DNA from: a phage
Length of the DNA stretch: 64,000 nt
Reading direction: 5' to 3' (one strand)
NCBI GenBank assembly: GCA_024683775.1
Contig: GCA_024683775.1_4106.1
A program made the position numbers and the translations under genes. A model generated the notes under the pieces. That model was not told where the DNA came from. It made no database searches and saw nothing but the letters and a program-made list of their open reading frames with translations. Positions 38,654 to 63,617 of this stretch are shown here, one piece after another (within the stretch, counting starts at the first letter, position 1; each line of letters opens with the position of its first letter).

Positions 38654-39082
38654 ATGAATATCGAACAAACTATCCGTAACCACTCTTTCTTCGCTGCTGA
38701 AACTGGTCGTGTAATCGAGAGCGTCAAAATTGAAGAACTGATGATTAACGTTAAATATAAAGAACTGAATGATGAGATTAGCAGCACCATTTGTGCACTA
38801 CGTGCTCCATTCCGTTCTGAAGCAGCTAAGAAACCTGCCTATGTACTGGCGATTGCATTGGGTTGTGTAGTGAAATTGGTCGTTGATGAAAATCAACTAA
38901 ATATCAAAGTTGCTCCAACCAACGATGAAGAAAACATCGACCTGAACTTTGAAGGTAATCTGGCTGAAGACGTATTCTTCCAACAATCACTGGTTTATGA
39001 TTTCCGTACCGTAACTCATGACCATATCAACTTTGTCAATGAGATGGTTGACATTGTAGCTGAATACGAAGCTTCCCTATAA
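38654..39082 (+). CDS. FQxS-motif paralogue family member
   Basis: C-terminal EDVFFQQSLVYDF motif. Confidence 0.5.
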   Translation: MNIEQTIRNHSFFAAETGRVIESVKIEELMINVKYKELNDEISSTICALRAPFRSEAAKKPAYVLAIALGCVVKLVVDENQLNIKVAPTNDEENIDLNFEGNLAEDVFFQQSLVYDFRTVTHDHINFVNEMVDIVAEYEASL

Positions 39083-39094
39083 TTAGATTAACAA

Positions 39095-39119
39095 AAGCCT
39101 CCGTAATGGGGGCTTTTTC
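39095..39119 (+). terminator. intrinsic terminator
   Basis: AGCCTCC-loop-GGGGGCT hairpin followed by TTTTT. Confidence 0.55.
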
Positions 39120-39138
39120 CAACATAAGGATATGAATA

Positions 39139-39690
39139 ATGATTGACCAAATTAAAATCCTAACTGAACAAATCACTGATTTTCTAGCAGATAAAGATGG
39201 ATTCAGTACTGAAGTTAAAATGCATGGTGTTAGTCTCGATGTAACTGCACCAAATGGTGAAACAACCAATTATGATATGTATGAAATCCTACTTTATACA
39301 TTGGCTGTTCGTAAACTTGGTAGTGATATTGAACTGAACATTAACAAAACCGAGAACGGTGACCAAGTGTTTGCAATCAACACTGGTGCACAAATGGACG
39401 TAGTAGCTGAAATCAACAAGATCAACCAATCTTTTGTGGGTTTCAAGCATGATACAATCCAATCTGTGTTCCTGGGTAAACAAACCGGAAACAGCCACTG
39501 TCCTTATTGTGTAATGACAACCTATAAAAATGGTAACTGGATGCGTCAGGATCTAGTACTTGCAGAAATGCTTTATGCAATCACTCACGGCCTAGAACTT
39601 GAACTTGATGATAGTGTTTACTGTTTCAAGAAAATCCGTAAACTTTCTGGTGATATACAAGCTCAATTAAAAGAATTAAATGATAAATAA
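39139..39690 (+). CDS. hypothetical protein
   Basis: ORF after AAGGATATGAATA. Confidence 0.5.
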   Translation: MIDQIKILTEQITDFLADKDGFSTEVKMHGVSLDVTAPNGETTNYDMYEILLYTLAVRKLGSDIELNINKTENGDQVFAINTGAQMDVVAEINKINQSFVGFKHDTIQSVFLGKQTGNSHCPYCVMTTYKNGNWMRQDLVLAEMLYAITHGLELELDDSVYCFKKIRKLSGDIQAQLKELNDK

Positions 39691-39802
39691 TTATACCAGT
39701 AATGGTTAACATTATCATGTTACTTTCCTCCCTTACATAATAATGATGCGTTATTATTTTATTGTATTATTCCCCTTTTTTGTACAAAATCTTTTTCGTA
39801 CT

Positions 39803-39826
39803 GCCCCGACCTTCGGGGCATTTTTC
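39803..39826 (+). terminator. intrinsic terminator
   Basis: GCCCCGA-CCT-TCGGGGC hairpin followed by ATTTTT. Confidence 0.7.
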
Positions 39827-39847
39827 TTGTCTAAATTTTGAGGTTCT

Positions 39848-40243
39848 ATGAATAATACTATTGGTAGTACAATATCTAAACCACTCTCTTATTACCTTGA
39901 AAAATTCAGAAGTACAAATGGTAAAAAATTTAATGGTATATACCAATTCTCACATAAAGAATATATCACAGTTGATTGTTATTCAAATAAACTTATGTAC
40001 GTAGATGATACTGAATACTGTATGAAATTGTCATTGGATGTAGAATTAGATAAGTTAACATTTATTGAATATACATCCAAAAGAACATCATTTCTTGGGA
40101 AATGTAATCGAAAAGTATATAAAAATATTTCAATGTACTTAAATGAAGATTACCACTTCCAACAAACAACGATTGAAGATGTTCTATTCAGTACTGAAGA
40201 ATTGAAAGAACTGTATCACTGGTATAAGCAATTCACATCTTGA
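39848..40243 (+). CDS. FQxS-motif paralogue family member
   Basis: EDYHFQQTTIEDV motif. Confidence 0.5.
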   Translation: MNNTIGSTISKPLSYYLEKFRSTNGKKFNGIYQFSHKEYITVDCYSNKLMYVDDTEYCMKLSLDVELDKLTFIEYTSKRTSFLGKCNRKVYKNISMYLNEDYHFQQTTIEDVLFSTEELKELYHWYKQFTS

Positions 40244-40268
40244 CATTATCGTGGGTTTATCCTACAAT
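40240..40268 (+). promoter_or_regulatory. sigma70-like promoter TTGACA-17-TACAAT
   Basis: Consensus spacing. Confidence 0.55.
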
Positions 40269-40298
40269 GTAAGATAATGATACATAGAGGATAAATTT

Positions 40299-40709
40299 AT
40301 GAGTTTAGATTTACACAATGAACTAAAATATTATTTCGATTTGGATATATCACATTTGAACCAACACGTCAATTATATGACTAGTACTATGTGGTGGTCT
40401 GATGAGTTTGATGAACCAAAAATCCAACTTTGTGGTGATTTGTCTGTTTTGAGGTTGTATGCCCTTGATTCGGAAATGAATATCAAGATCACATACATCC
40501 CATACACAAACAAACTTATTGTAAACACCCTAAACCCAGTTACCGTATTGAAAATTTCTGATTTGGACACGATACAGTCAGATGAATCACTATTCCAACG
40601 TTCTTTGATTGATGATATGGGTGGTATTTTATATGAAGATATTGTACAATTGAAGAAGATGTATAGTGAATTGTTAGAAATTAAAAACACAGTAATTGTG
40701 GGGAGTTGA
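40299..40709 (+). CDS. FQxS-motif paralogue family member
   Basis: DESLFQRSLIDDM motif. Confidence 0.55.
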   Translation: MSLDLHNELKYYFDLDISHLNQHVNYMTSTMWWSDEFDEPKIQLCGDLSVLRLYALDSEMNIKITYIPYTNKLIVNTLNPVTVLKISDLDTIQSDESLFQRSLIDDMGGILYEDIVQLKKMYSELLEIKNTVIVGS

Positions 40710-40710
40710 T

Positions 40711-41115
40711 ATGGTAAGTTTACTTGATATTGATAATACCAGTCTAGTACTGGTAAAAAAAGGTGTAATTCCCAATTCTACAAAAATTGATTATGCAGTT
40801 ATTGAAACAAATATTGGAAATATCTGGTATGACTCCGAAAGGGATATTGTGATTAGCTGCGTAGACAGTGACCGTGCTGAGTGTTGTAGGGTTGGTCATG
40901 ACGGGCAATTTATTTTCGAATTCCGTTACTGGAAAGATGCTAAATTCCATCATGAGCATGTTTCAATTACAGGTGTGTATTGCACCGAAGAATCGTTCTT
41001 CATGGATAGTACTGTTAATGATTTTGGTTCAGTTACATTTGAGTACTATAAAAAAGTATACAACGTATCCAGAGAAGTAATGCGAATCATCAGAAATGCT
41101 GAGGGTCAAGATTAA
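40711..41115 (+). CDS. FQxS-motif paralogue family member
   Basis: EESFFMDSTVNDF motif; start moved to ATG at 40711 after GGGGAG. Confidence 0.5.
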   Translation: MVSLLDIDNTSLVLVKKGVIPNSTKIDYAVIETNIGNIWYDSERDIVISCVDSDRAECCRVGHDGQFIFEFRYWKDAKFHHEHVSITGVYCTEESFFMDSTVNDFGSVTFEYYKKVYNVSREVMRIIRNAEGQD

Positions 41116-41116
41116 C

Positions 41117-41491
41117 ATGACTACTATATATGACATTTTAGGTGACTTGAATAAAAATATAGATAATGATTTTGTTATTGTTCAAGATACTAGAAATTTA
41201 TTTCAACTACCAATAGGTTCACCAGATAGGTTAATTTTTAATAGATACGCAAAAACACTGACATACCTACACGATGGTATGGTTATATTGGTACTTGATA
41301 TTAAAGAAAATACAATACGATATGCATATGACTTCAAAGATTATTGGTCAAGAACCCATAGTATTGATATTGAGGAAGAGGAACTATTCCAATTGTCATT
41401 GATTGAGGAAAATGTAATAGGAATTACAGAAATTGATATTGTTAAAAAAGCATTAGACTATACAAATATAAAAATTAATGGTGAGCTATGA
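41117..41491 (+). CDS. FQxS-motif paralogue family member
   Basis: EEELFQLSLIEEN motif; start moved to ATG at 41117. Confidence 0.5.
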   Translation: MTTIYDILGDLNKNIDNDFVIVQDTRNLFQLPIGSPDRLIFNRYAKTLTYLHDGMVILVLDIKENTIRYAYDFKDYWSRTHSIDIEEEELFQLSLIEENVIGITEIDIVKKALDYTNIKINGEL

Positions 41492-41943
41492 TGGAAATTG
41501 ATGAAATAAAAAATCATTTTGAAATTGCATTGTCTTGTAAATTTGATGGCTCTTATGTTCCTGATCCAGAAGAGATAATTAGAATTTCCACATCGTTTTC
41601 GGAAGAGTACAATGTTCTTATTGAGAAAACATATGACAGTACGGAACTCGCATTTTACAATAAGAATTCACGAACAACAACATTTATATTATTATATAAC
41701 ACAACATCGGATTTAATAGAAATTATAACATGTAAAACAATCAAAGATGTACATTATGAGACTATATCAAATGTGAGTTATTGTTCAACTGAAGAAGGAT
41801 ACTTTCAGGAATCTCTTGTTAAAAATTTAACAGTTAGTTATTCTGATTTAAGCACTATAATCAATTGTGTTGAAAAGCTAAATGATTTCGTTCTATCTAT
41901 GTTTGATATCACAGAGCAAAACCCGAAGGTAATCAAATGCTAA
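41488..41943 (+). CDS. FQxS-motif paralogue family member
   Basis: EEGYFQESLVKNL motif. Confidence 0.55.
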   Translation: MMEIDEIKNHFEIALSCKFDGSYVPDPEEIIRISTSFSEEYNVLIEKTYDSTELAFYNKNSRTTTFILLYNTTSDLIEIITCKTIKDVHYETISNVSYCSTEEGYFQESLVKNLTVSYSDLSTIINCVEKLNDFVLSMFDITEQNPKVIKC

Positions 41944-42392
41944 ATCCAGGACAGTTTTTCCATTTACTTAGTATTACACCTATACCGGATTTAATCAGTG
42001 AAGCGAATCAATATCGTGATATAGGAATTGTATCTATGGAATACGATTCACCTGACTTTAAATGTTACGTAACATATGATTTGGTAGCCTATGAGTCAGA
42101 AACTGAGATAAAAAAACCATCATACATTTTTGTGTTCATATATAATGATTATAGTGGTGATCTACTCAATGATGTTCATATTGACACATTTGAAATATGT
42201 GATAATATTATAACAGATGATTCATCATGTACATTTGATTTATCAGAAAACAGTACTGAAGAGGCACTTTTTCAGTTGAGTACTGTTAGTGACACTGTAC
42301 TAACTCTTGATGACATTGAGAAATTTAAAGAACAGCTTGACGCAGTACGTGAGATGTTCTATAATCATTATCCAGAAATCGAGTTCAAATAA
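41937..42392 (+). CDS. FQxS-motif paralogue family member
   Basis: EEALFQLSTVSDT motif. Confidence 0.55.
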   Translation: MLNPGQFFHLLSITPIPDLISEANQYRDIGIVSMEYDSPDFKCYVTYDLVAYESETEIKKPSYIFVFIYNDYSGDLLNDVHIDTFEICDNIITDDSSCTFDLSENSTEEALFQLSTVSDTVLTLDDIEKFKEQLDAVREMFYNHYPEIEFK

Positions 42393-42406: not shown

Positions 42407-42667
42407 ATGACTAAAGTAGTTCGTAAACGCCACATGATGAACATGGATGAATTTCGCACCTTTGACAAATACCGTACTATGTTTCGTATGCTGTCACAGG
42501 GCCGTCCAATCGTCATTGTAACGGAGAATTACATGTCACCTGAGATGATGTTCGGTAATTATGAAAAGGTCTTCATGTTGTACGTGAAGCGTGAATTGCT
42601 AACGATTAAGACCTTAGCTGAAGCTACAGATGAAGATATGGATGGTGATAATACATTTACCATGTGA
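42407..42667 (+). CDS. hypothetical protein
   Basis: ORF. Confidence 0.45.
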   Translation: MTKVVRKRHMMNMDEFRTFDKYRTMFRMLSQGRPIVIVTENYMSPEMMFGNYEKVFMLYVKRELLTIKTLAEATDEDMDGDNTFTM

Positions 42668-42706
42668 GGAAATATATGGCAGAAAAACCAAAAGAACCAT
42701 TGGACC

Positions 42707-42997
42707 GTGATGATGATTTTTACGACGAACGATATGGGGAATCAGATGAGTGAACATCGTGCAGTACTTAAAAAGATTTTAAATGAACTTGGTGATGAGT
42801 TTAATGTTACTGAAGAAGAATATCAATGTTGGAAGAAGGATTTTGAACTCCTTGCTGAGTATGATAAAGTCTTCAATATGATTGGTGTCATTAGCCAGTA
42901 CTTACTTGGTGGTGGTCGAGCCAGTGCTTCAATTCTTGCATCTGCGATCATCTGTACTTCTCGATGGTGCGATGAAAAAAGTCTGGAAGATTTCTAA
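42707..42997 (+). CDS. hypothetical protein
   Basis: ORF. Confidence 0.4.
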   Translation: MMMIFTTNDMGNQMSEHRAVLKKILNELGDEFNVTEEEYQCWKKDFELLAEYDKVFNMIGVISQYLLGGGRASASILASAIICTSRWCDEKSLEDF

Positions 42998-43002: not shown

Positions 43003-43049
43003 ATGCTATAATGTATTATAGTACCTTAACAATATAAAAAGGATTTTAT

Positions 43050-43910
43050 ATGAAACCTATCAGAGTACTGTCACTTTTTAATGGAATGAGCGTTGGATAT
43101 ATGGCATTGGCAGATGCAGGTATTCCAGTTGAAAAATATTACTCATCTGAAATTGACAAGTACGCAATTGCTGAATCTTCCGAGAATTTTCCTGATATTA
43201 TCCAGTTAGGTGATGTGACTAAGTGGAAAGAATGGGATATTGAGTGGGATAAGATAGATTTACTCATGGGAGGATTCCCATGTCAAGCCTGGTCTGTTGC
43301 TGGTAAGCAAGGTGGCTTGAATGATATACGTGGACAGTTATTTTTGGTTATGGTTGATATTTTTGAGCACATCAAAAGTGTAAATCCAAACTTGCAATTT
43401 CTGTTCGAGAATGTTAAAATGAAGGAAGATTTCAAAGAATACATTAATAGTATTTTAGGAATCACACCAGTACTGATAAATTCCCAGCATTATACGCCTC
43501 ACTTCAGGCAGAGATACTACTGGTGCAGTACTGATAAGCTTTTTATACCACCTGCATTATCAAATGCCCCTAAACTTCAAGATATCATTGAAGATGGTTG
43601 GTATACTGACAGAACCGCTTCGTACTGTATAGATGCTAACTATTTTAAGGGTGGTGATTGTAACCAGTACTTTAATAAATCAAGACGACAGTTGGTGTTT
43701 CGTGACCCAACGATTAATCGTCAATATCTATTGGAGAATGGTAAAAGAAATATTGACTATAGACACTTAAGTGTAGTAGAATGTTGTAAATTACAGGGTA
43801 TTCCTGTAGATTTCTTTAAAGTGTCTAGTAAGACACAAGCATACAAAATGCTTGGGAATGGATGGACTATGCCAGTTATATCACACTTACTAAGAGAGAT
43901 ATTCTTTTGA
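43050..43910 (+). CDS. DNA (cytosine-5)-methyltransferase
   Basis: Motif I LFNGMSVG, motif IV GFPCQ, motif VI ENV, QxRxR-like FRQRYY, motif X LGNGW. Confidence 0.8.
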   Translation: MKPIRVLSLFNGMSVGYMALADAGIPVEKYYSSEIDKYAIAESSENFPDIIQLGDVTKWKEWDIEWDKIDLLMGGFPCQAWSVAGKQGGLNDIRGQLFLVMVDIFEHIKSVNPNLQFLFENVKMKEDFKEYINSILGITPVLINSQHYTPHFRQRYYWCSTDKLFIPPALSNAPKLQDIIEDGWYTDRTASYCIDANYFKGGDCNQYFNKSRRQLVFRDPTINRQYLLENGKRNIDYRHLSVVECCKLQGIPVDFFKVSSKTQAYKMLGNGWTMPVISHLLREIFF

Positions 43911-43912
43911 AC

Positions 43913-44392
43913 ATGAAGAACTACCCCACCTATACTGAACGTGTAATGAAATTTCAACGTCAGTCATCAAAGGAAGAATTAGAATTTAATTTGTACTATC
44001 CTAATATTGGTGATGAGGTATTCTATTGTTCTCATACAAAGAATGGAACTTTACTTAAATCTGGTAAAGGTATTATTGTTGATATGATTAGCACTTTCAA
44101 AGGTAAACTTAATGTAATGTACAAAGTACAAGATTCAAGTACTGAGTGCATTCATGAAGTGATGCATAATATACCTGCATATCCAAAGGATTTTGTTGAG
44201 CTAATATCTCGAAGGGAGAAACCTATGTTTTATTGTGGTTATGACAAACTAACCAAACAAATTATTCCTAATACTATGGGAAAATTTAAAAGTGATGTTA
44301 AAACTGAACTTAATAAGAAATTAGGTTCATCATGGGAAACTGAAAACGAATTCATCGAAATTCGTTTGATTGAAGTTACTATACTCGATTAA
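43913..44392 (+). CDS. hypothetical protein
   Basis: Track ORF 43862 overlaps the methyltransferase; ATG at 43913 directly follows its stop. Confidence 0.45.
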   Translation: MKNYPTYTERVMKFQRQSSKEELEFNLYYPNIGDEVFYCSHTKNGTLLKSGKGIIVDMISTFKGKLNVMYKVQDSSTECIHEVMHNIPAYPKDFVELISRREKPMFYCGYDKLTKQIIPNTMGKFKSDVKTELNKKLGSSWETENEFIEIRLIEVTILD

Positions 44393-44398
44393 TTACAG

Positions 44399-44422
44399 AT
44401 CCACGCTATGCGTGGATTTTTC
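44399..44422 (+). terminator. intrinsic terminator
   Basis: ATCCACGC-TAT-GCGTGGAT hairpin followed by TTTTC. Confidence 0.65.
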
Positions 44423-44434
44423 ATAGGTGCATAT

Positions 44435-44950
44435 ATGACAGTTCCTTATGTTAAAATTATTAATAATATCCTTGATTCGTGGGAAGATGTTATTACTGGT
44501 AAAAAGAACCCAATGCCAGTACACGCACTAACCGGAAGACTACAATTCAGAACGTCAAACAAAACTGAAACTTTTAATAATCATGATGTTCACATTACTA
44601 TAAAATCACCTGTACGTATTGTAATTAAAAAAAATCAAGATGATGAATTGACATTATCTATTGGTAGTGATAAAATCATTTTGAGTAATTTATCCGAAGA
44701 AGAATTCTTTCAACGTAGTACTATCATCGATATGAAAGATTTCACATATGAATCATTGGTTGAACTCAATACACGTTTCAACGATATTCAGGAACGATTG
44801 CGACCAATCCTCGGTAAAGAAGAGGAAGCCTGGAATGAAAGTGTGAGAAAGATGCAAGAAATGTTGAAAGAAAATATTAACAATCTGGGTAAAGCTACAA
44901 TGGAATTTGGTAAATCTTTTAAACTGAACTTTTCAAAGGATCGTAAATGA
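44435..44950 (+). CDS. FQxS-motif paralogue family member
   Basis: EEEFFQRSTIIDM motif; start moved downstream of the terminator hairpin. Confidence 0.5.
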   Translation: MTVPYVKIINNILDSWEDVITGKKNPMPVHALTGRLQFRTSNKTETFNNHDVHITIKSPVRIVIKKNQDDELTLSIGSDKIILSNLSEEEFFQRSTIIDMKDFTYESLVELNTRFNDIQERLRPILGKEEEAWNESVRKMQEMLKENINNLGKATMEFGKSFKLNFSKDRK

Positions 44951-45402
44951 AAATTGATAATTTGATTCATGTCTTAGGGACTTTACATAAAATATTATCT
45001 CATGTAGATGAGATAAAGAAACTGGGACTTAACATCTCAAATTCAATTGAAACTACATTTAAATATCAATCAATTACTGGTGATGGTTATTACATAATCG
45101 AATATACTTATGAAACCGATCCAGACTTCTATCCTCTTACGTTGAGAATTTATCCAACAAATCCGAGAGGAATTCACGACATATCATCAATTTCACTTGA
45201 TCCAGATGGTGAAACGAGTATTGAATACAATAATGATTCAAAACCAGAATTTTACATTGATGATATTAAAAAGTTGTTCAATGATGAATATGTTTTCCAA
45301 CAAAGTACTGTGCATGATGTTGGTAGTACTACTGGGCAATTTTGGAATACATGTTATTATCATATGATTGAAATTTGTAAATTACTAAAAGGTGTTGAAT
45401 AA
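44947..45402 (+). CDS. FQxS-motif paralogue family member
   Basis: DEYVFQQSTVHDV motif. Confidence 0.55.
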   Translation: MKIDNLIHVLGTLHKILSHVDEIKKLGLNISNSIETTFKYQSITGDGYYIIEYTYETDPDFYPLTLRIYPTNPRGIHDISSISLDPDGETSIEYNNDSKPEFYIDDIKKLFNDEYVFQQSTVHDVGSTTGQFWNTCYYHMIEICKLLKGVE

Positions 45403-45785
45403 TGAAATACTGCATTGAAGTACATTACACTACAGGTGATACTGAAAATTGTTATGACGTTCTTAATACAATTGATATTCAATGGTCTTCTAAAGAGGAA
45501 GCAGTTGCTGCTTTACAGTGCCTAAAAGAGCATTGGGTGTTTTATATGAAGCAAGATAATTGCTATACAAAAGAACACGAAACGATCATGGAAAATGCTA
45601 AACAAAAAGAGTGGTTTGACCCAATATCACCAGAATATTCATTCTTAGTTAAAGTTGGTGATGTGACAGTTCCATTACGAACACCGTGGAACGGCTACTT
45701 TGAAACTCTTCATAATGCACGAGTTGTCGCTGTTGATAACCCTGAACAAATCGATTTCGATTCATTGGACTGGAAAAAACTATGA
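45402..45785 (+). CDS. hypothetical protein
   Basis: ORF. Confidence 0.45.
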   Translation: MKYCIEVHYTTGDTENCYDVLNTIDIQWSSKEEAVAALQCLKEHWVFYMKQDNCYTKEHETIMENAKQKEWFDPISPEYSFLVKVGDVTVPLRTPWNGYFETLHNARVVAVDNPEQIDFDSLDWKKL

Positions 45786-46225
45786 CAGTACTGCACCGAT
45801 TGAAGAAGGTTAAGCATCCAGTTGTATATGAGGACTGGAAACGACAGAAGTTGCTGGGTGATTTTTATTACCCAAAATCTAAAGTTCTTGCGAATTCAAG
45901 ATGTACATATTGCACACATAATGATAAAGATACAGTATTTGTCGAAATGGGTTTCCATCCATCAAACACAATGTTCACTACTAACCAAACGTTTTACAAA
46001 TTTCATATACAAAAAGATTCATTTACTGTTATGATTATAAAACATTTAGTTGAAGATCTGGCATTCAGTGAAGAACGAGTACCTTTATCATTAGTGGATA
46101 TTCCTTATAATAATTTAGAGGAAATGTACTTCCAACAGTTGACAGTACAAGAAAACTTTGGTATGATAGGACTTCAAGAGTTAGAGATGATTAAGCAAAT
46201 TCGTGATATCTACTTTAAGGAGTAA
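45782..46225 (+). CDS. FQxS-motif paralogue family member
   Basis: EEMYFQQLTVQEN motif. Confidence 0.55.
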   Translation: MTVLHRLKKVKHPVVYEDWKRQKLLGDFYYPKSKVLANSRCTYCTHNDKDTVFVEMGFHPSNTMFTTNQTFYKFHIQKDSFTVMIIKHLVEDLAFSEERVPLSLVDIPYNNLEEMYFQQLTVQENFGMIGLQELEMIKQIRDIYFKE

Positions 46226-54171: not shown

Positions 54172-54763
<592 letters not shown>

Positions 54764-54767
<4 letters not shown>

Positions 54768-54792
54768 CTAAATAGTTCAGTACTGATATAAT
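54764..54792 (+). promoter_or_regulatory. repeated promoter cassette, copy 2
   Basis: TTGACTAAATAGTTCAGTACTGATATAAT. Confidence 0.6.
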
Positions 54793-54867
54793 GAATTCCA
54801 CAATCAGACGTATATGGTGTAAGTTACGTCGATGTAATCCAGAACAAGATCTCTGGTACTCTAGGAA

Positions 54868-55077
54868 GTGGTGAATGTTAACCTAGACGGGTTTGATAAT
54901 TGGACGATAGGCAATTATTACTTGACTAGCAGGTTTAAACTAGAGGTGACAGTCCTTTACCAAACTGGAAAACCGGATGGACTTTTATTTAAAAGGGTAA
55001 GGCGTGGAAATATGTTTACAGTAGTTGCTTTTAGTAGCCTGTACGCCCCACGTAAAGGTAGCCGAAAGGCAAGTTAA
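54868..55077 (+). CDS. hypothetical small basic protein (doubtful; region may instead be an RNA)
   Basis: ORF lies in a GC-richer segment with hairpins such as GCCGAAAGGC. Confidence 0.25.
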   Translation: MVNVNLDGFDNWTIGNYYLTSRFKLEVTVLYQTGKPDGLLFKRVRRGNMFTVVAFSSLYAPRKGSRKAS

Positions 55078-55155
55078 AACGGGTGGTTATAAAGCTGAAT
55101 TAACAGCGGCGTTTAAAAGCGTCACCATCCATTTTTTTTAATTAAAGTTGGTGAT

Positions 55156-55533
<378 letters not shown>

Positions 55534-60870: not shown

Positions 60871-61296
60871 ATGACATACAACATTGTTAAAATGGTGAAC
60901 TACGTATTAAAAAACAACGCATGGTCACTACATGATGTACAATTAAAAGATATTGGTGAAGTTAGAGTTTTTTGCTATGATGACGATTTGAACGAAACCA
61001 CTGATTTGAGTAAATGTTTTAATATTTTTCTTGGTTATGAAATCAATGATCATTTTTATTCATTTGATGTGTATTTTGAACGAGTTAAAATCAGAATTTA
61101 TTCAGTAGATAATGATTTTTATGATTATGATAACGAATCAATTGAATTGAATTTTAACGATATTGATACTGAAGAAAAATTCTTCCAGTACTGTCTCGTA
61201 AACGATCTAAATGGATTGACATTTGAGGACATTAGTGCTATCCTTAAAGTTAAAAGATTGATTCCAGAAGAGGTTCCAAATCCGTTTAATGACTAG
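60871..61296 (+). CDS. FQxS-motif paralogue family member
   Basis: EEKFFQYCLVNDL motif. Confidence 0.55.
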   Translation: MTYNIVKMVNYVLKNNAWSLHDVQLKDIGEVRVFCYDDDLNETTDLSKCFNIFLGYEINDHFYSFDVYFERVKIRIYSVDNDFYDYDNESIELNFNDIDTEEKFFQYCLVNDLNGLTFEDISAILKVKRLIPEEVPNPFND

Positions 61297-61648
61297 TTTA
61301 ATAACTCGTATAATGCAAGATGTTCGTAAGAATCTTTATACTGGTAATTTTGATGATCCTAACATAAAAATATTATGTTATGATGTATTCACACTGGTAC
61401 ACCCATCTGAATCTAATAATATATACATAGCATATACTTCTCCTGATATTTTGTATCAATTTGATTTATATAGTACAATGGCTAAGATAACATTAGATGT
61501 TTCTAAGGAGCCATTTTTTATAGCAGTACATGATTTTGAGTACACAGAAGAGTCATTATTCCAGTACTCAATGATAAATGACATTGGTGACTTGACATTA
61601 GAAGAGATAAATGTTATAGTTGGTATGTGTCGTTTGATTAATCCATAA
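61289..61648 (+). CDS. FQxS-motif paralogue family member
   Basis: EESLFQYSMINDI motif. Confidence 0.55.
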   Translation: MTSLITRIMQDVRKNLYTGNFDDPNIKILCYDVFTLVHPSESNNIYIAYTSPDILYQFDLYSTMAKITLDVSKEPFFIAVHDFEYTEESLFQYSMINDIGDLTLEEINVIVGMCRLINP

Positions 61649-61661
61649 CTCGGAGCTTAAT

Positions 61662-61853
61662 ATGTTTTTGAATTTGTTATGCTTATTTGGTCGTACATTG
61701 GTTCTTGCTATTATTCATACACCTGGTATTCGTAATTATGTTTCTTATGAATTTAAGAAAAATTACCACAACAACACTGAAGTTCGTGTAACTAAGATGT
61801 GCAAAGACTTCAATGGAGATGTTCAACCATTCAAGAAGTACGAGGATGAATAA
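61662..61853 (+). CDS. hypothetical small protein
   Basis: ORF. Confidence 0.4.
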   Translation: MFLNLLCLFGRTLVLAIIHTPGIRNYVSYEFKKNYHNNTEVRVTKMCKDFNGDVQPFKKYEDE

Positions 61854-62137
61854 TGGAATTTATTGTTGCACCTGATGAACTAAAAACATTCACGTTCCGA
61901 GACAATAACAATTATCCTTATATAAATCATTCATTGAATTCATTGCATGTTATTTCAATCATTGCATCTGAATACAGAGACAATCCATGTATTGATTTTA
62001 AAACCACTGATGGTGAATATACATGGGTAGTTCCGAACGATAAATACAGTTATCAGGGTGCAGTGGAGATCCGCGACTCGATTCTAAAGCAAATCGAAGA
62101 TGGACATACTCATCCTAAACTAAACATTCAGTACTGA
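61853..62137 (+). CDS. hypothetical protein
   Basis: ORF. Confidence 0.45.
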   Translation: MEFIVAPDELKTFTFRDNNNYPYINHSLNSLHVISIIASEYRDNPCIDFKTTDGEYTWVVPNDKYSYQGAVEIRDSILKQIEDGHTHPKLNIQY

Positions 62138-62152
62138 AATCGTTTAACCGGA

Positions 62153-62198
62153 TAGCTTCTAGTCGGTACTGAATTCCTCCTTTTGTCTAGAAGCTATC
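62153..62198. repeat. 12-bp inverted repeat GATAGCTTCTAG / CTAGAAGCTATC enclosing a 22-nt loop
   Basis: Perfect inverted repeat in a non-coding stretch; adjacent TTCAGTACTGAA palindrome at 62140. Confidence 0.5.
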
Positions 62199-62328
62199 AC
62201 TCTTTTAAAGTATAATGATATCACCCTCATGGTTCATTATATTCGTTACCCTCTAACAGTATCTTTTTTATTCCTCTTTGATACTGTATTTTAGAAGTTG
62301 ACATTTTTACTTCTACTGTGTTATACTT

Positions 62329-62360
62329 AAGGCTGATTCATAATGAATCGGCCTTTTTTT
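62329..62360 (+). terminator. hairpin plus U-run between a promoter-like site and the next ORF (terminator or attenuator)
   Basis: AAGGCTGATTCA-TAA-TGAATCGGCCTT followed by TTTTTTT; TTGACA-17-TATACT at 62298..62326. Confidence 0.55.
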
Positions 62361-62378
62361 CTTGTGGGGATTAATGTA

Positions 62379-62795
62379 ATGAATAAAGAAGTTATTAGTT
62401 TAATGGATGAGTATATCAACCAAACATATCGTTTTATATTTTTTAATGCATTTGAGTCCAGAACAACGTATTATTCTGGTGAATATGAGATAATAACTGG
62501 ATCATTTCTTAACGGATACATGGAGTTTTTAGAACAAAGCGATAATGTGTTCATTTCCATATCTGAAAAACATGGTAATGATTATGTTATTGATATGTGG
62601 CCTAATAAAGTAGAGATTGATACCACGCACAAAATCGTAATTGATGTGGATGAATCGTTGTATGATTTAACTGAAGATATGTACATGCAACTAAATTTCG
62701 TATACGATCTAACTAACATAAGTTATTCTAATCTAAGTAAATTATTTTATATTTGTGGTGTACTACATAAAAACGTACAACAAAATAAAGGATAA
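62379..62795 (+). CDS. FQxS-motif paralogue family member (divergent)
   Basis: EDMYMQLNFVYDL motif; track start 62343 lies in the hairpin, so ATG at 62379 is used. Confidence 0.5.
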   Translation: MNKEVISLMDEYINQTYRFIFFNAFESRTTYYSGEYEIITGSFLNGYMEFLEQSDNVFISISEKHGNDYVIDMWPNKVEIDTTHKIVIDVDESLYDLTEDMYMQLNFVYDLTNISYSNLSKLFYICGVLHKNVQQNKG

Positions 62796-62803
62796 ACATT
62801 TAA

Positions 62804-63208
62804 ATGTTGAAAATTCCACCACATACACTATCTATGCTAATTGAAAATGGTGTAATATTTTCTGAAGGGTGTAGTTCATTCTATACATGTGACGTAGACC
62901 CGTATACATTTGAATACCGTTCATTTAAAAATACATTGAGTGTTCCATGTGAAGCTTCTGACAACATTGTACTTGTCGTTTCGTTCTATGGTGTGCCAAA
63001 ATTCTTCATTGATATATATTATGATTCTTTTAAGATACAAACATACGATCATTTTCTTGGTGAAGTGCTCTTGCAAATGCAGATTGAACATGTTACTATA
63101 GATGAAGATATGTTCTTTCAGCTATCTACATTATACGATATGTGTGGATTGTCAGTTGACAACATAAATGGTATATTTGAAATTGCCAGAAACCTACGAG
63201 GAAGATGA
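62804..63208 (+). CDS. FQxS-motif paralogue family member
   Basis: EDMFFQLSTLYDM motif. Confidence 0.55.
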   Translation: MLKIPPHTLSMLIENGVIFSEGCSSFYTCDVDPYTFEYRSFKNTLSVPCEASDNIVLVVSFYGVPKFFIDIYYDSFKIQTYDHFLGEVLLQMQIEHVTIDEDMFFQLSTLYDMCGLSVDNINGIFEIARNLRGR

Positions 63209-63209
63209 T

Positions 63210-63617
63210 ATGAATAAAATTTTAAGTGATAATGAGGTTGATATTGTCATTGATGTGCTTGAAAACAGTAATACATTTGAGAAGAAACACAGTACTGTAT
63301 ACTTCGGTAAAGATTGCTGGTTGAGCTATATATCTGATAATTCGTTTGTAATTCGTGTTGAAACGGGTGATATTGGATTTACGGTACATGCGGCACATAC
63401 CAAAACTGATAAACAAATCACTGTTATTGCTGACACGCCAAGTATCTGGGATAGAATTGATGATTGTGAACACTACACGTCAACATTCTATGATACAGAA
63501 GAAGAACATTTCATGGATAGTACGGTCAAAGAATTAACTATTCCATTTAAACTTATGAAAGCAGCAAGAGATTTTATTTTAAAATACAAAAAAATAGGAG
63601 TTGATGATGCAATTTAA
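63210..63617 (+). CDS. FQxS-motif paralogue family member
   Basis: EEEHFMDSTVKEL motif; start moved to ATG at 63210 after GAGGAAG. Confidence 0.5.
   Translation: MNKILSDNEVDIVIDVLENSNTFEKKHSTVYFGKDCWLSYISDNSFVIRVETGDIGFTVHAAHTKTDKQITVIADTPSIWDRIDDCEHYTSTFYDTEEEHFMDSTVKELTIPFKLMKAARDFILKYKKIGVDDAI

Follow-up and report, generated by a model that had tools for sequence, protein, structure and literature searches.

The window analyzed here, a stretch of phage DNA of 64,000 nt, encodes at positions 43050–43910 of the plus strand a compact, DNMT3-like cytosine-C5 methyltransferase of 286 amino acids. As far as can be judged from its sequence the product is an intact member of this family of DNA methylases; the methyl transfer itself is predicted. 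The gene is an orphan, shows the substitution pattern of strong purifying selection and belongs to a jumbo coliphage, a relative of which lacks the hydroxymethylcytosine (hmC)/glucosylation pathway of T4. We consider it likely that the enzyme is active and that it protects the ordinary cytosine DNA of the phage from restriction.

Family membership, conserved motifs and fold

The open reading frame runs uninterrupted from an ATG start to a TGA stop codon. A preliminary description of this DNA had assigned the product to the C5 methyltransferases with an aligned catalytic Pro-Cys and had proposed a search with the profiles of the family; a missing family match or a misaligned PCQ would have spoken against the assignment. 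In this search the protein scored above the curated thresholds of PF00145 (Pfam; 128.6 bits, cut-off 22, E=4.7e-37) and of TIGR00675 (NCBIfam, "dcm" superfamily; 117.2 bits, cut-off 100.65) and matched PHROG 116 "DNA methyltransferase" over residues 1–285 (E=1.2e-58). The best PADLOC matches were to type II and orphan methyltransferase models, that is to DNA methylases of restriction–modification systems. Moreover, P77-C78-Q79 falls on the PC of DNMT3B, and the assignment was confirmed.

We compared the protein with 60 homologues, going down to about 50% identity, and took the motif equivalences with DNMT3B from the residue alignment produced by phmmer. Motif I (LFNGMSVG, L9–G16, 43074–43097), which binds AdoMet, aligns to LFDGIATG of DNMT3B. 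It departs from the canonical FxGxG (FNGMS), and DNMT3 has a similar variant (F-D-G-I-A-T-G); in the family alignment F10 and G12 are invariant, and S14 and G16 are found in at least 90% of the sequences. Motif IV (GFPCQ, G75–Q79, 43272–43286) contains the codon of the catalytic Cys78 at 43281–43283 and aligns to GGSPC of DNMT3B, and motif VI (ENV, starting at E120, 43407–43415) aligns to ENV. Motif VIII (RQRYYW, 43506–43523) carries the RxR element R153-x-R155 and aligns to RARYFW of DNMT3, with R153, R155, Y157 and W158 being invariant. The variable region or target-recognition domain (TRD) follows at residues 160–237 (43527–43760) with the conserved boxes SYCIDANYFKGG and NKSRRQLVF; it is among the shortest of the relatives examined, and the inserts of the longer relatives fall exactly here. 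Motif IX (R238-x-L-S-V-V-E-C-C-K-L-Q-G-I-P, with E244 to P252, 43761–43805) was located by the family alignment, and motif X (GNG(W), G269-N-G, 43854–43862) aligns to GRSW of DNMT3B. All these elements lie on the plus strand. The motif order is canonical and non-permuted with the TRD between motifs VIII and IX, and all motifs named previously (I, IV, VI, the QxRxR-like motif and X) are in place. Across the 60 homologues there is no variation at F10, G12, E34, P77, C78, E120, N121, V122, R153, R155 and G269-N-G.

An AlphaFold2 model built on the same 60-sequence alignment has a mean pLDDT of 93.8 and a pTM of 0.91 and is soft only at residues 81–90, the loop after PCQ; the catalytic loop of such enzymes is mobile and softness at this place is usual. 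When the model was compared with the PDB using Foldseek, the best 50 matches were all catalytic domains of DNMT3A, DNMT3B and DNMT3C (E down to 1e-24, TM about 0.8, 25–29% identity), and the protein thus has the two-lobed methyltransferase fold.

The ratio dN/dS is 0.07 against the gene of phage 121Q (92% nucleotide and 96% amino acid identity) and 0.11 against the exteins of phage UE-S1, which points to strong purifying selection, and the gene is kept across several genera. In the records of CMSTMSU, SD-6_S16 and SD-1_S14 the gene is interrupted and present in two to three pieces each. The gene may therefore be dispensable, or these records may contain sequencing errors.

Source phage, gene neighbourhood and transcription signals

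A region of 3 kb around the gene is 99.3–99.8% identical to the Escherichia phages WPEC5, fEgEco12, WPEC3, Turkey3, BF17 and others; the identity is 95.7% with TH47 and about 89.5% with 121Q, PBECO4, phAPEC6, G17 and Sharanji. These relatives are jumbo myoviruses of 350–385 kb of or near the genus Asteriusvirus. By this measure the source of the window is an Asteriusvirus-type jumbo coliphage of the 121Q/PBECO4 group and not T4, which had been the setting assumed before. That assumption is explained by T4-like genes elsewhere in the window (NrdAB, DHFR, RNase H, two topoisomerase II subunits and clamp loader); judged from its gene content the phage is a distant relative of T4 sharing only replication and nucleotide-metabolism genes.

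We searched the window and the assembled complete genome of TH47 (352 kb) by tblastn with T4 gp42, alpha-glucosyltransferase and beta-glucosyltransferase. The beta-glucosyltransferase gave no match in either, and the alpha-glucosyltransferase gave only a spurious match at chance level, 59 amino acids long, on the N-terminus of the methylase. With gp42 a single open reading frame was found in TH47 (24% identity), and this is a bona fide thymidylate synthase: it scores 343 bits on NF002497 (equivalog cut-off 327), while T4 gp42 itself reaches about 30–49 bits on thymidylate synthase models. In line with this the phAPEC6 paper lists a thymidylate synthase and a dCMP deaminase, and according to the CBB paper no genes for glycosylated hmC were found in CBB. 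Going by these searches, the T4 hmC/glucosylation system is absent from the genome of the relative, TH47 having neither a dCMP hydroxymethylase nor a glucosyltransferase, and the premise of a T4-like hmC system, for which true homologues of gp42 and of both glucosyltransferases would be needed in the window or in TH47, was rejected. The phage DNA should therefore contain ordinary cytosine, the substrate of a C5 methylase. As an hmC genome offers no such substrate, the methylase is not an "alternative or additional" strategy to hmC and glucosylation as had been suggested: there is no hmC system to supplement, but protection against restriction stands as the most likely role.

The methylase gene is preceded by two small open reading frames of 86 and 96 amino acids (42407–42667 and 42707–42997, spanning 42407–42997) and followed by one of 176 amino acids starting at 43862 (43862–44392), for which an alternative in-frame ATG lies 2 nt past the stop codon of the methylase, at 43913; all three lie on the plus strand. 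In annotated relatives all neighbours of the methylase, among them the upstream pair, are hypothetical genes without assigned function. Scans of the flanking frames with Pfam and PADLOC gave no matches and no nuclease, Vsr or defence profile. By these profile scans the upstream pair are neither members of the FQxS paralogue family of this window nor nucleases, and the downstream frame is neither a Vsr nor a restriction enzyme. A type II restriction–modification system would require an adjacent cognate endonuclease, and no such nuclease was found in the flanks by Pfam or PADLOC. With neither a restriction endonuclease nor a Vsr beside it, the gene qualifies as an orphan; in the complete genome of TH47 it is also the sole C5-methylase locus.

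An iterative HMM search seeded with six FQxS members showed that this family is real and has 17–18 open reading frames in the window, clustered at 38654–42392, 44408–46225, 54402–55533 and 60871–63617. The nearest members are found at 41937–42392 upstream (E=6e-29) and at 44408–44950 downstream (E=4e-22), both on the plus strand. The methylase had been placed between runs of this family, and it is indeed embedded in the array; together with the three small non-family frames it forms an island of about 2 kb and does not abut any member.

The preliminary description had also given the gene an extended −10 promoter of its own, and this appears plausible. A promoter-like element matching the extended −10 consensus, TGCTATAAT, is located on the plus strand at 43004–43012, 38 nt upstream of the ATG and inside the intergenic gap of 52 nt; its −35 is weak. 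It is followed by the Shine–Dalgarno sequence AGGA (43040–43043, plus strand, 6 nt before the ATG), and in UE-S1 a ribosome binding site is annotated at the equivalent position. The upstream region of 76 nt is 99% identical in 121Q, UE-S1 and fEgEco12, phages that are otherwise 86–90% identical. In addition, the window has more sites of the motif class TGNTATAAT than expected (23 compared with 7.4), and 18 of them are on the plus strand, which is the coding strand. A generic sigma-70 scan did not call the TGCTATAAT site because its −35 is weak. The conservation upstream together with the enrichment and strand bias of TGNTATAAT supports, short of proof, an early promoter used by the host polymerase. 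Many of the extended −10 sites carry a GGACAAAC-like box just before them.

In five sister phages (UE-S1, ph0011, TH47, JNE01 and A4) the methylase gene has 626–629 codons and contains an intein of 340–343 amino acids between P77 and C78. The intein matches Pfam Hint_2 and LAGLIDADG_3 above their thresholds, and thus a LAGLIDADG endonuclease is present. The alleles of UE-S1 and TH47 read GGFP|C...VVHN|CQ. From the point of insertion it follows that the catalytic Cys of the methylase is at the same time the +1 nucleophile of the intein. Two alleles occupy this one site, being only 54% identical, and genes for DNA methylases in Lactobacillus, Mannheimia, Propionibacterium and mycobacteriophages harbour distant relatives of the intein. 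In the window the insertion site is empty, with the junction at 43280|43281. The intein on the catalytic Cys is unannotated in the sister phages; it goes unmentioned in the UE-S1 paper, and a literature search for intein together with cytosine methylase returned nothing relevant.

Proposed role, target site and alternative explanations

In the enzymology of HhaI and DNMT3 the Cys attacks C6 of the flipped cytosine, the Glu protonates N3, the Arg pair holds the base, and motifs I–III and X bind AdoMet. For the phage enzyme we propose that the host sigma-70 RNA polymerase probably transcribes the gene from its conserved extended −10 promoter and that the methylase would then act on the phage's own ordinary cytosine DNA during replication. 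The target cytosine would be flipped out of the duplex and attacked at C6 by Cys78; the base would be activated and held in place by Glu120 and Arg153/Arg155, and C5 would receive the methyl group from AdoMet. Progeny genomes carrying 5mC at a short target site should resist host enzymes cutting that site. In this task the methylase may work beside a Dam-type adenine methylase of the phage and in a genome from which palindromic restriction sites have been purged to an extreme degree.

This purge is evident from k-mer counts. GCGC does not occur in TH47 (0, about 333 expected) nor in the window (0, 58 expected); the short loci of Erwinia phage Hallingskeid and of CBB lack it as well, and T4 has it. 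Furthermore, of the 64 six-base palindromes TH47 lacks 23 altogether and four more almost completely. Since the genome lacks GCGC and the 23 purged hexamers, these sites are excluded as protective targets. Among the tetramers GTAC is the most frequent relative to expectation (2.19x), with GTGC and GCAC mildly raised (1.43x).

The most over-represented octamer of TH47 is CAGTACTG with 203 copies compared with 3.6 expected, a 56-fold excess. The window has 32 copies (0.69 expected), two of which (43468 and 43526) fall within the methylase gene, and Hallingskeid also bears the motif at high density. The copies are scattered over all frames of coding sequence and seldom stand beside promoters; 26 of the 32 sites of the window are inside open reading frames, in line with the coding density. 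As only 11 of the 203 sites abut a −10-like hexamer, a function as a general promoter element was rejected. An origin of GTAC by deamination of G(5mC)GC is speculation and cannot give a 56-fold excess of one octamer. A literature search for the octamer yielded primer matches only. AGTACT or CAGTACTG is also an unlikely target of the methylase, because Hallingskeid, with its high density of the motif, showed marks only at GATC and CCWGG (PMC11780129).

CCWGG is the most likely target at present and is to be taken as a candidate only. When native and whole-genome-amplified virion DNA of Hallingskeid were compared by nanopore sequencing, exactly two marks were found, 6mA at GATC and 5mC at CCWGG; the authors note that host enzymes such as Dcm could account for them (PMC11780129). 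Hallingskeid has just two predicted phage methylases; one of them, the orthologue CDS_0275, is 77% identical to the methylase of the window and retains the TRD boxes SYCIDANY(F/W)KGGD and NQYFNKSRRQ(L/M)VF. Sharanji plates on MG1655, which is consistent with CCWGG. The site is also retained in the phage genome (243 sites, 1.12x the zero-order expectation, compared with 0.17x for CCSGG). C(5mC)WGG is not known to be a substrate of E. coli McrBC. The k-mer statistics show that CCWGG, GGCC, CCGG and CGCG are all retained, without telling these sites apart. An assignment of the target from TRD homology was rejected, as Dcm, HhaI and HaeIII align in the catalytic half only, and a sequence search against structures and the subfamily model detected no similarity of the TRD to that of Dcm/EcoRII. 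A CCWGG specificity would therefore have to be convergent. It is conceivable, if rather doubtful, that the phage has acquired this specificity independently through an unrelated TRD and so copies the Dcm pattern on any host, which would protect its DNA from enzymes of the EcoRII type and keep it invisible to McrBC and would form one arm of a defence beside Dam and the purge of GC-rich palindromes.

Other functions of the methylase have to be weighed against protection from restriction. The 5mC might serve as a self-mark and not as a shield, telling phage from host DNA for a phage nuclease or regulating packaging, replication or transcription, much as Dam regulates the packaging of P1. Most palindromic restriction sites being already avoided, there is less need for protective methylation; the complete lack of GCGC in the sequences of the clade would fit a phage nuclease shredding host DNA, and the conservation of the methylase gene across several genera agrees with such a role. 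On the other hand, Pfam and PADLOC revealed no methyl-dependent or methyl-sensitive nuclease beside the gene, there is no precedent in the clade, and orphan C5 methylases of phages are generally read as anti-restriction enzymes in the literature, so that we regard a self-mark as improbable. It is less probable still that the gene is a decaying or selfish remnant, either the survivor of a lost restriction–modification pair or a landing pad for a homing intein, and of no current benefit to the phage. The interrupted copies in a few records, the occupation of the gene by an intein with a LAGLIDADG endonuclease in five sister phages and the location among small accessory genes could be taken in this sense, but the low dN/dS (0.07–0.11) and the invariance of the catalytic residues across genera are not those of a decaying gene. 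Moreover, inteins are typically retained in indispensable genes, and the PCQ motif is exactly re-formed on splicing.

We attach very little probability to two further explanations. One is that the enzyme is an RNA m5C methyltransferase of the DNMT2/TRDMT1 kind which acts on phage or host tRNAs. These jumbo phages do bear many tRNA genes and tRNA-related enzymes, and structures of DNMT2 and of a tRNA(Cyt38) methyltransferase were matched with E=6.5e-10 to 6e-06. Compared with the full-length match to DNMT3, however, these matches are confined to the N-terminal half and weaker by at least 13 orders of magnitude; the protein does not contain the CFT motif specific to DNMT2, and the best PADLOC matches are, as described, DNA methylases. 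The other is that methylation opens a hypermodification pathway in which 5mC is oxidised by a TET/JBP-type dioxygenase and then glycosylated. Such cassettes exist in other phages, and the neighbouring genes, having no assigned function, would leave room for one. The flanking frames tested, however, matched no profile of a dioxygenase or glycosyltransferase, jumbo phages lack TET/JBP hydroxylases according to Iyer et al., and Hallingskeid and Kaldavass have been sequenced natively by nanopore with simple 5mC at CCWGG (PMC11780129). Protection from restriction is thus the reading that we prefer.

Comparison with known relatives and systems

The orthologues of fEgEco12 (g455), WPEC5, WPEC3, BF17 and Ecwhy_1 are 100% identical to the methylase of the window, those of the 121Q/PBECO4 group (among them 121Q gp91, YP_009101685) are about 95.5% identical, and those of CBB (gp580) and Hallingskeid (CDS_0275) 76–77%; phAPEC6, G17, Sharanji ("HaeIIIM", WNN14532) and GAP32 have annotated orthologues as well. 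The neighbourhood of the methylase is syntenic in the Asteriusvirus relatives, while in Hallingskeid and CBB the gene was seen only to have the same orientation, amid small hypothetical genes. Nothing material distinguishes the methylase of the window from its annotated orthologues. Many GenBank records already carry the gene under names such as DNA methyltransferase, cytosine methyltransferase or Dcm methyltransferase, or under "HaeIII", "HpaII" or "DNMT2"; some of the labels "HaeIII", "HpaII", "DNMT2" and "Dcm" are automated guesses as far as a named specificity is concerned. The papers on phAPEC6, CBB, Sharanji and UE-S1 and a survey of jumbo phages also mention the gene and ascribe the same protective function to it. 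By this reading it encodes an ordinary self-protection methylase of a phage.

Our analysis confirms a conserved cytosine methylase in coliphages of 350–385 kb, several of which have been proposed for therapy, and predicts that their virion DNA is partly modified with 5mC. This would bear on restriction mapping and nanopore basecalling as well as on how far systems of type II and type IV (McrA/McrBC) limit the host range.

Among solved relatives the best sequence match is to the catalytic domains of mammalian DNMT3A/3B/3C (phmmer E=1.2e-23, residues 2–282, identity about 27%). The likeness extends to the motif I variant, the RxRY[FY]W of motif VIII and the small target-recognition region. DNMT3, however, has regulatory PWWP and ADD domains, which read chromatin, and a partner of the DNMT3L type, whereas the phage protein is a bare catalytic domain of 286 amino acids without these. 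The phage enzyme thus resembles the catalytic domain of DNMT3, but we do not file it as a member of DNMT3, although KEGG-based annotation in virome studies commonly bins such phage genes as "DNMT3A". As the TRD aligns poorly to that of DNMT3, the CpG specificity of the latter is not transferable. DNMT2/TRDMT1 matches at E=6.5e-10 or weaker only, and the protein is not placed there.

With M.HhaI and M.HaeIII the enzyme shares the fold and the motif order, the N-terminal half being aligned with E values of about 1e-15 to 1e-17. It differs from them in having no cognate endonuclease and another TRD, and GCGC is ruled out as its protective target. With E. coli Dcm and M.EcoRII it has the superfamily and the chemistry in common, and possibly also CCWGG, if the Hallingskeid mark is that of the phage enzyme. 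The designation as a Dcm-type methylase made before holds in the generic sense of the superfamily but not for the subfamily of E. coli Dcm: the protein reaches 20.9 bits on the subfamily model NF007772, for which 710 are required, no Dcm-type TRD was seen, and the Dcm structures 3lx6 and 3me5 match residues 69–124 only. The Dcm chains in the PDB have 410 and 482 residues, compared with 286 of the phage protein, which is also without a Vsr partner.

The T4 system, finally, shares with the methylase the broad aim of escaping host restriction. The two differ in chemistry and stage: T4, whose gp42 and glucosyltransferase genes are absent from TH47, replaces the nucleotide pool, whereas the phage enzyme, by its family, should methylate cytosine post-replicatively in the DNA. 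The idea of a methylase sitting on top of a T4-like hmC system is corrected accordingly.

An intein at the catalytic cysteine of the methylase

The gene of the orphan C5-cytosine DNA methyltransferase (286 aa, window 43050..43910, + strand) is split in the sister phages UE-S1, ph0011, TH47, JNE01 and A4 by a LAGLIDADG intein of 340-343 aa, which occupies L002:1732-2751 at the UE-S1 locus and MT446416.1 176068-177096 in TH47. In these phages the insertion point lies between Pro77 and the catalytic Cys78, and the catalytic cysteine of the methylase is therefore at the same time the +1 residue of the intein. The corresponding site in the window is empty (43280|43281). Two alleles of the intein, only 54% identical to each other, are found at this one site, and distant relatives are present in the DNA methylase genes of unrelated phages. 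The intein is not annotated in the sister-phage records and is not mentioned in the UE-S1 paper.

In CMSTMSU (MH494197) and in the Salmonella phages SD-6_S16 and SD-1_S14 the match to the methylase gene is divided into two to three pieces. These pieces are not separated by an intein-sized gap, which suggests either frameshifts caused by sequencing errors or genuine pseudogenes.

The surroundings of the methylase gene

For the ORF 3′ of the methylase a possible start at 43862 would give an overlap of 49 nt with the methylase gene (43862-43910); an alternative in-frame ATG is present at 43913, 2 nt past the methylase stop. The annotated start also varies among the relatives, with a 4-nt overlap in 121Q and a position 81 nt downstream in UE-S1.

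A large share of this part of the genome is taken up by a family of paralogous small proteins (119-180 aa) with at least 17 members, many of which carry a C-terminal FQxS[TL] motif. The family is clustered at window positions 38654-42392, 44408-46225, 54402-55533 and 60871-63617, and none of the three members tested gave a Pfam match.

Putative promoters and an enriched octamer

The window contains the extended -10 element TGNTATAAT at three times the expected frequency and with a strong preference for the coding strand; examples on the + strand lie at 1426, 7903, 11836, 25314, 49218, 53630 and 55362. Many copies have a GGACAAAC-like box about 10-15 nt upstream, which suggests a phage-specific class of early or middle promoters.

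Also enriched is the 8-bp palindrome CAGTACTG, with 32 copies in the window versus 0.69 expected (about 46-fold) and 203 versus 3.6 expected in the TH47 genome (56-fold), 27 of these in a single 10-kb stretch at ~100-110 kb. The sites occur in every reading frame and the majority is intragenic, two of them within the methylase gene (43468-43475 and 43526-43533); the copies at 54778 and 56139 adjoin -10 elements. GTAC is the tetramer with the highest over-representation, and AGTACT is over-represented 7.6-fold.

Palindrome avoidance

GCGC is absent from the window (58 copies expected) and from the whole 352-kb genome of TH47 (about 333 expected), as are 23 of the 64 six-base palindromes from TH47, among them CTGCAG, CAGCTG, GGTACC and GCATGC. 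Possibly this extreme avoidance reflects the evasion of restriction, or else immunity to a phage nuclease attacking the host DNA. The short Hallingskeid and CBB loci also lack GCGC, whereas T4, unlike all of these sequences, does contain it.
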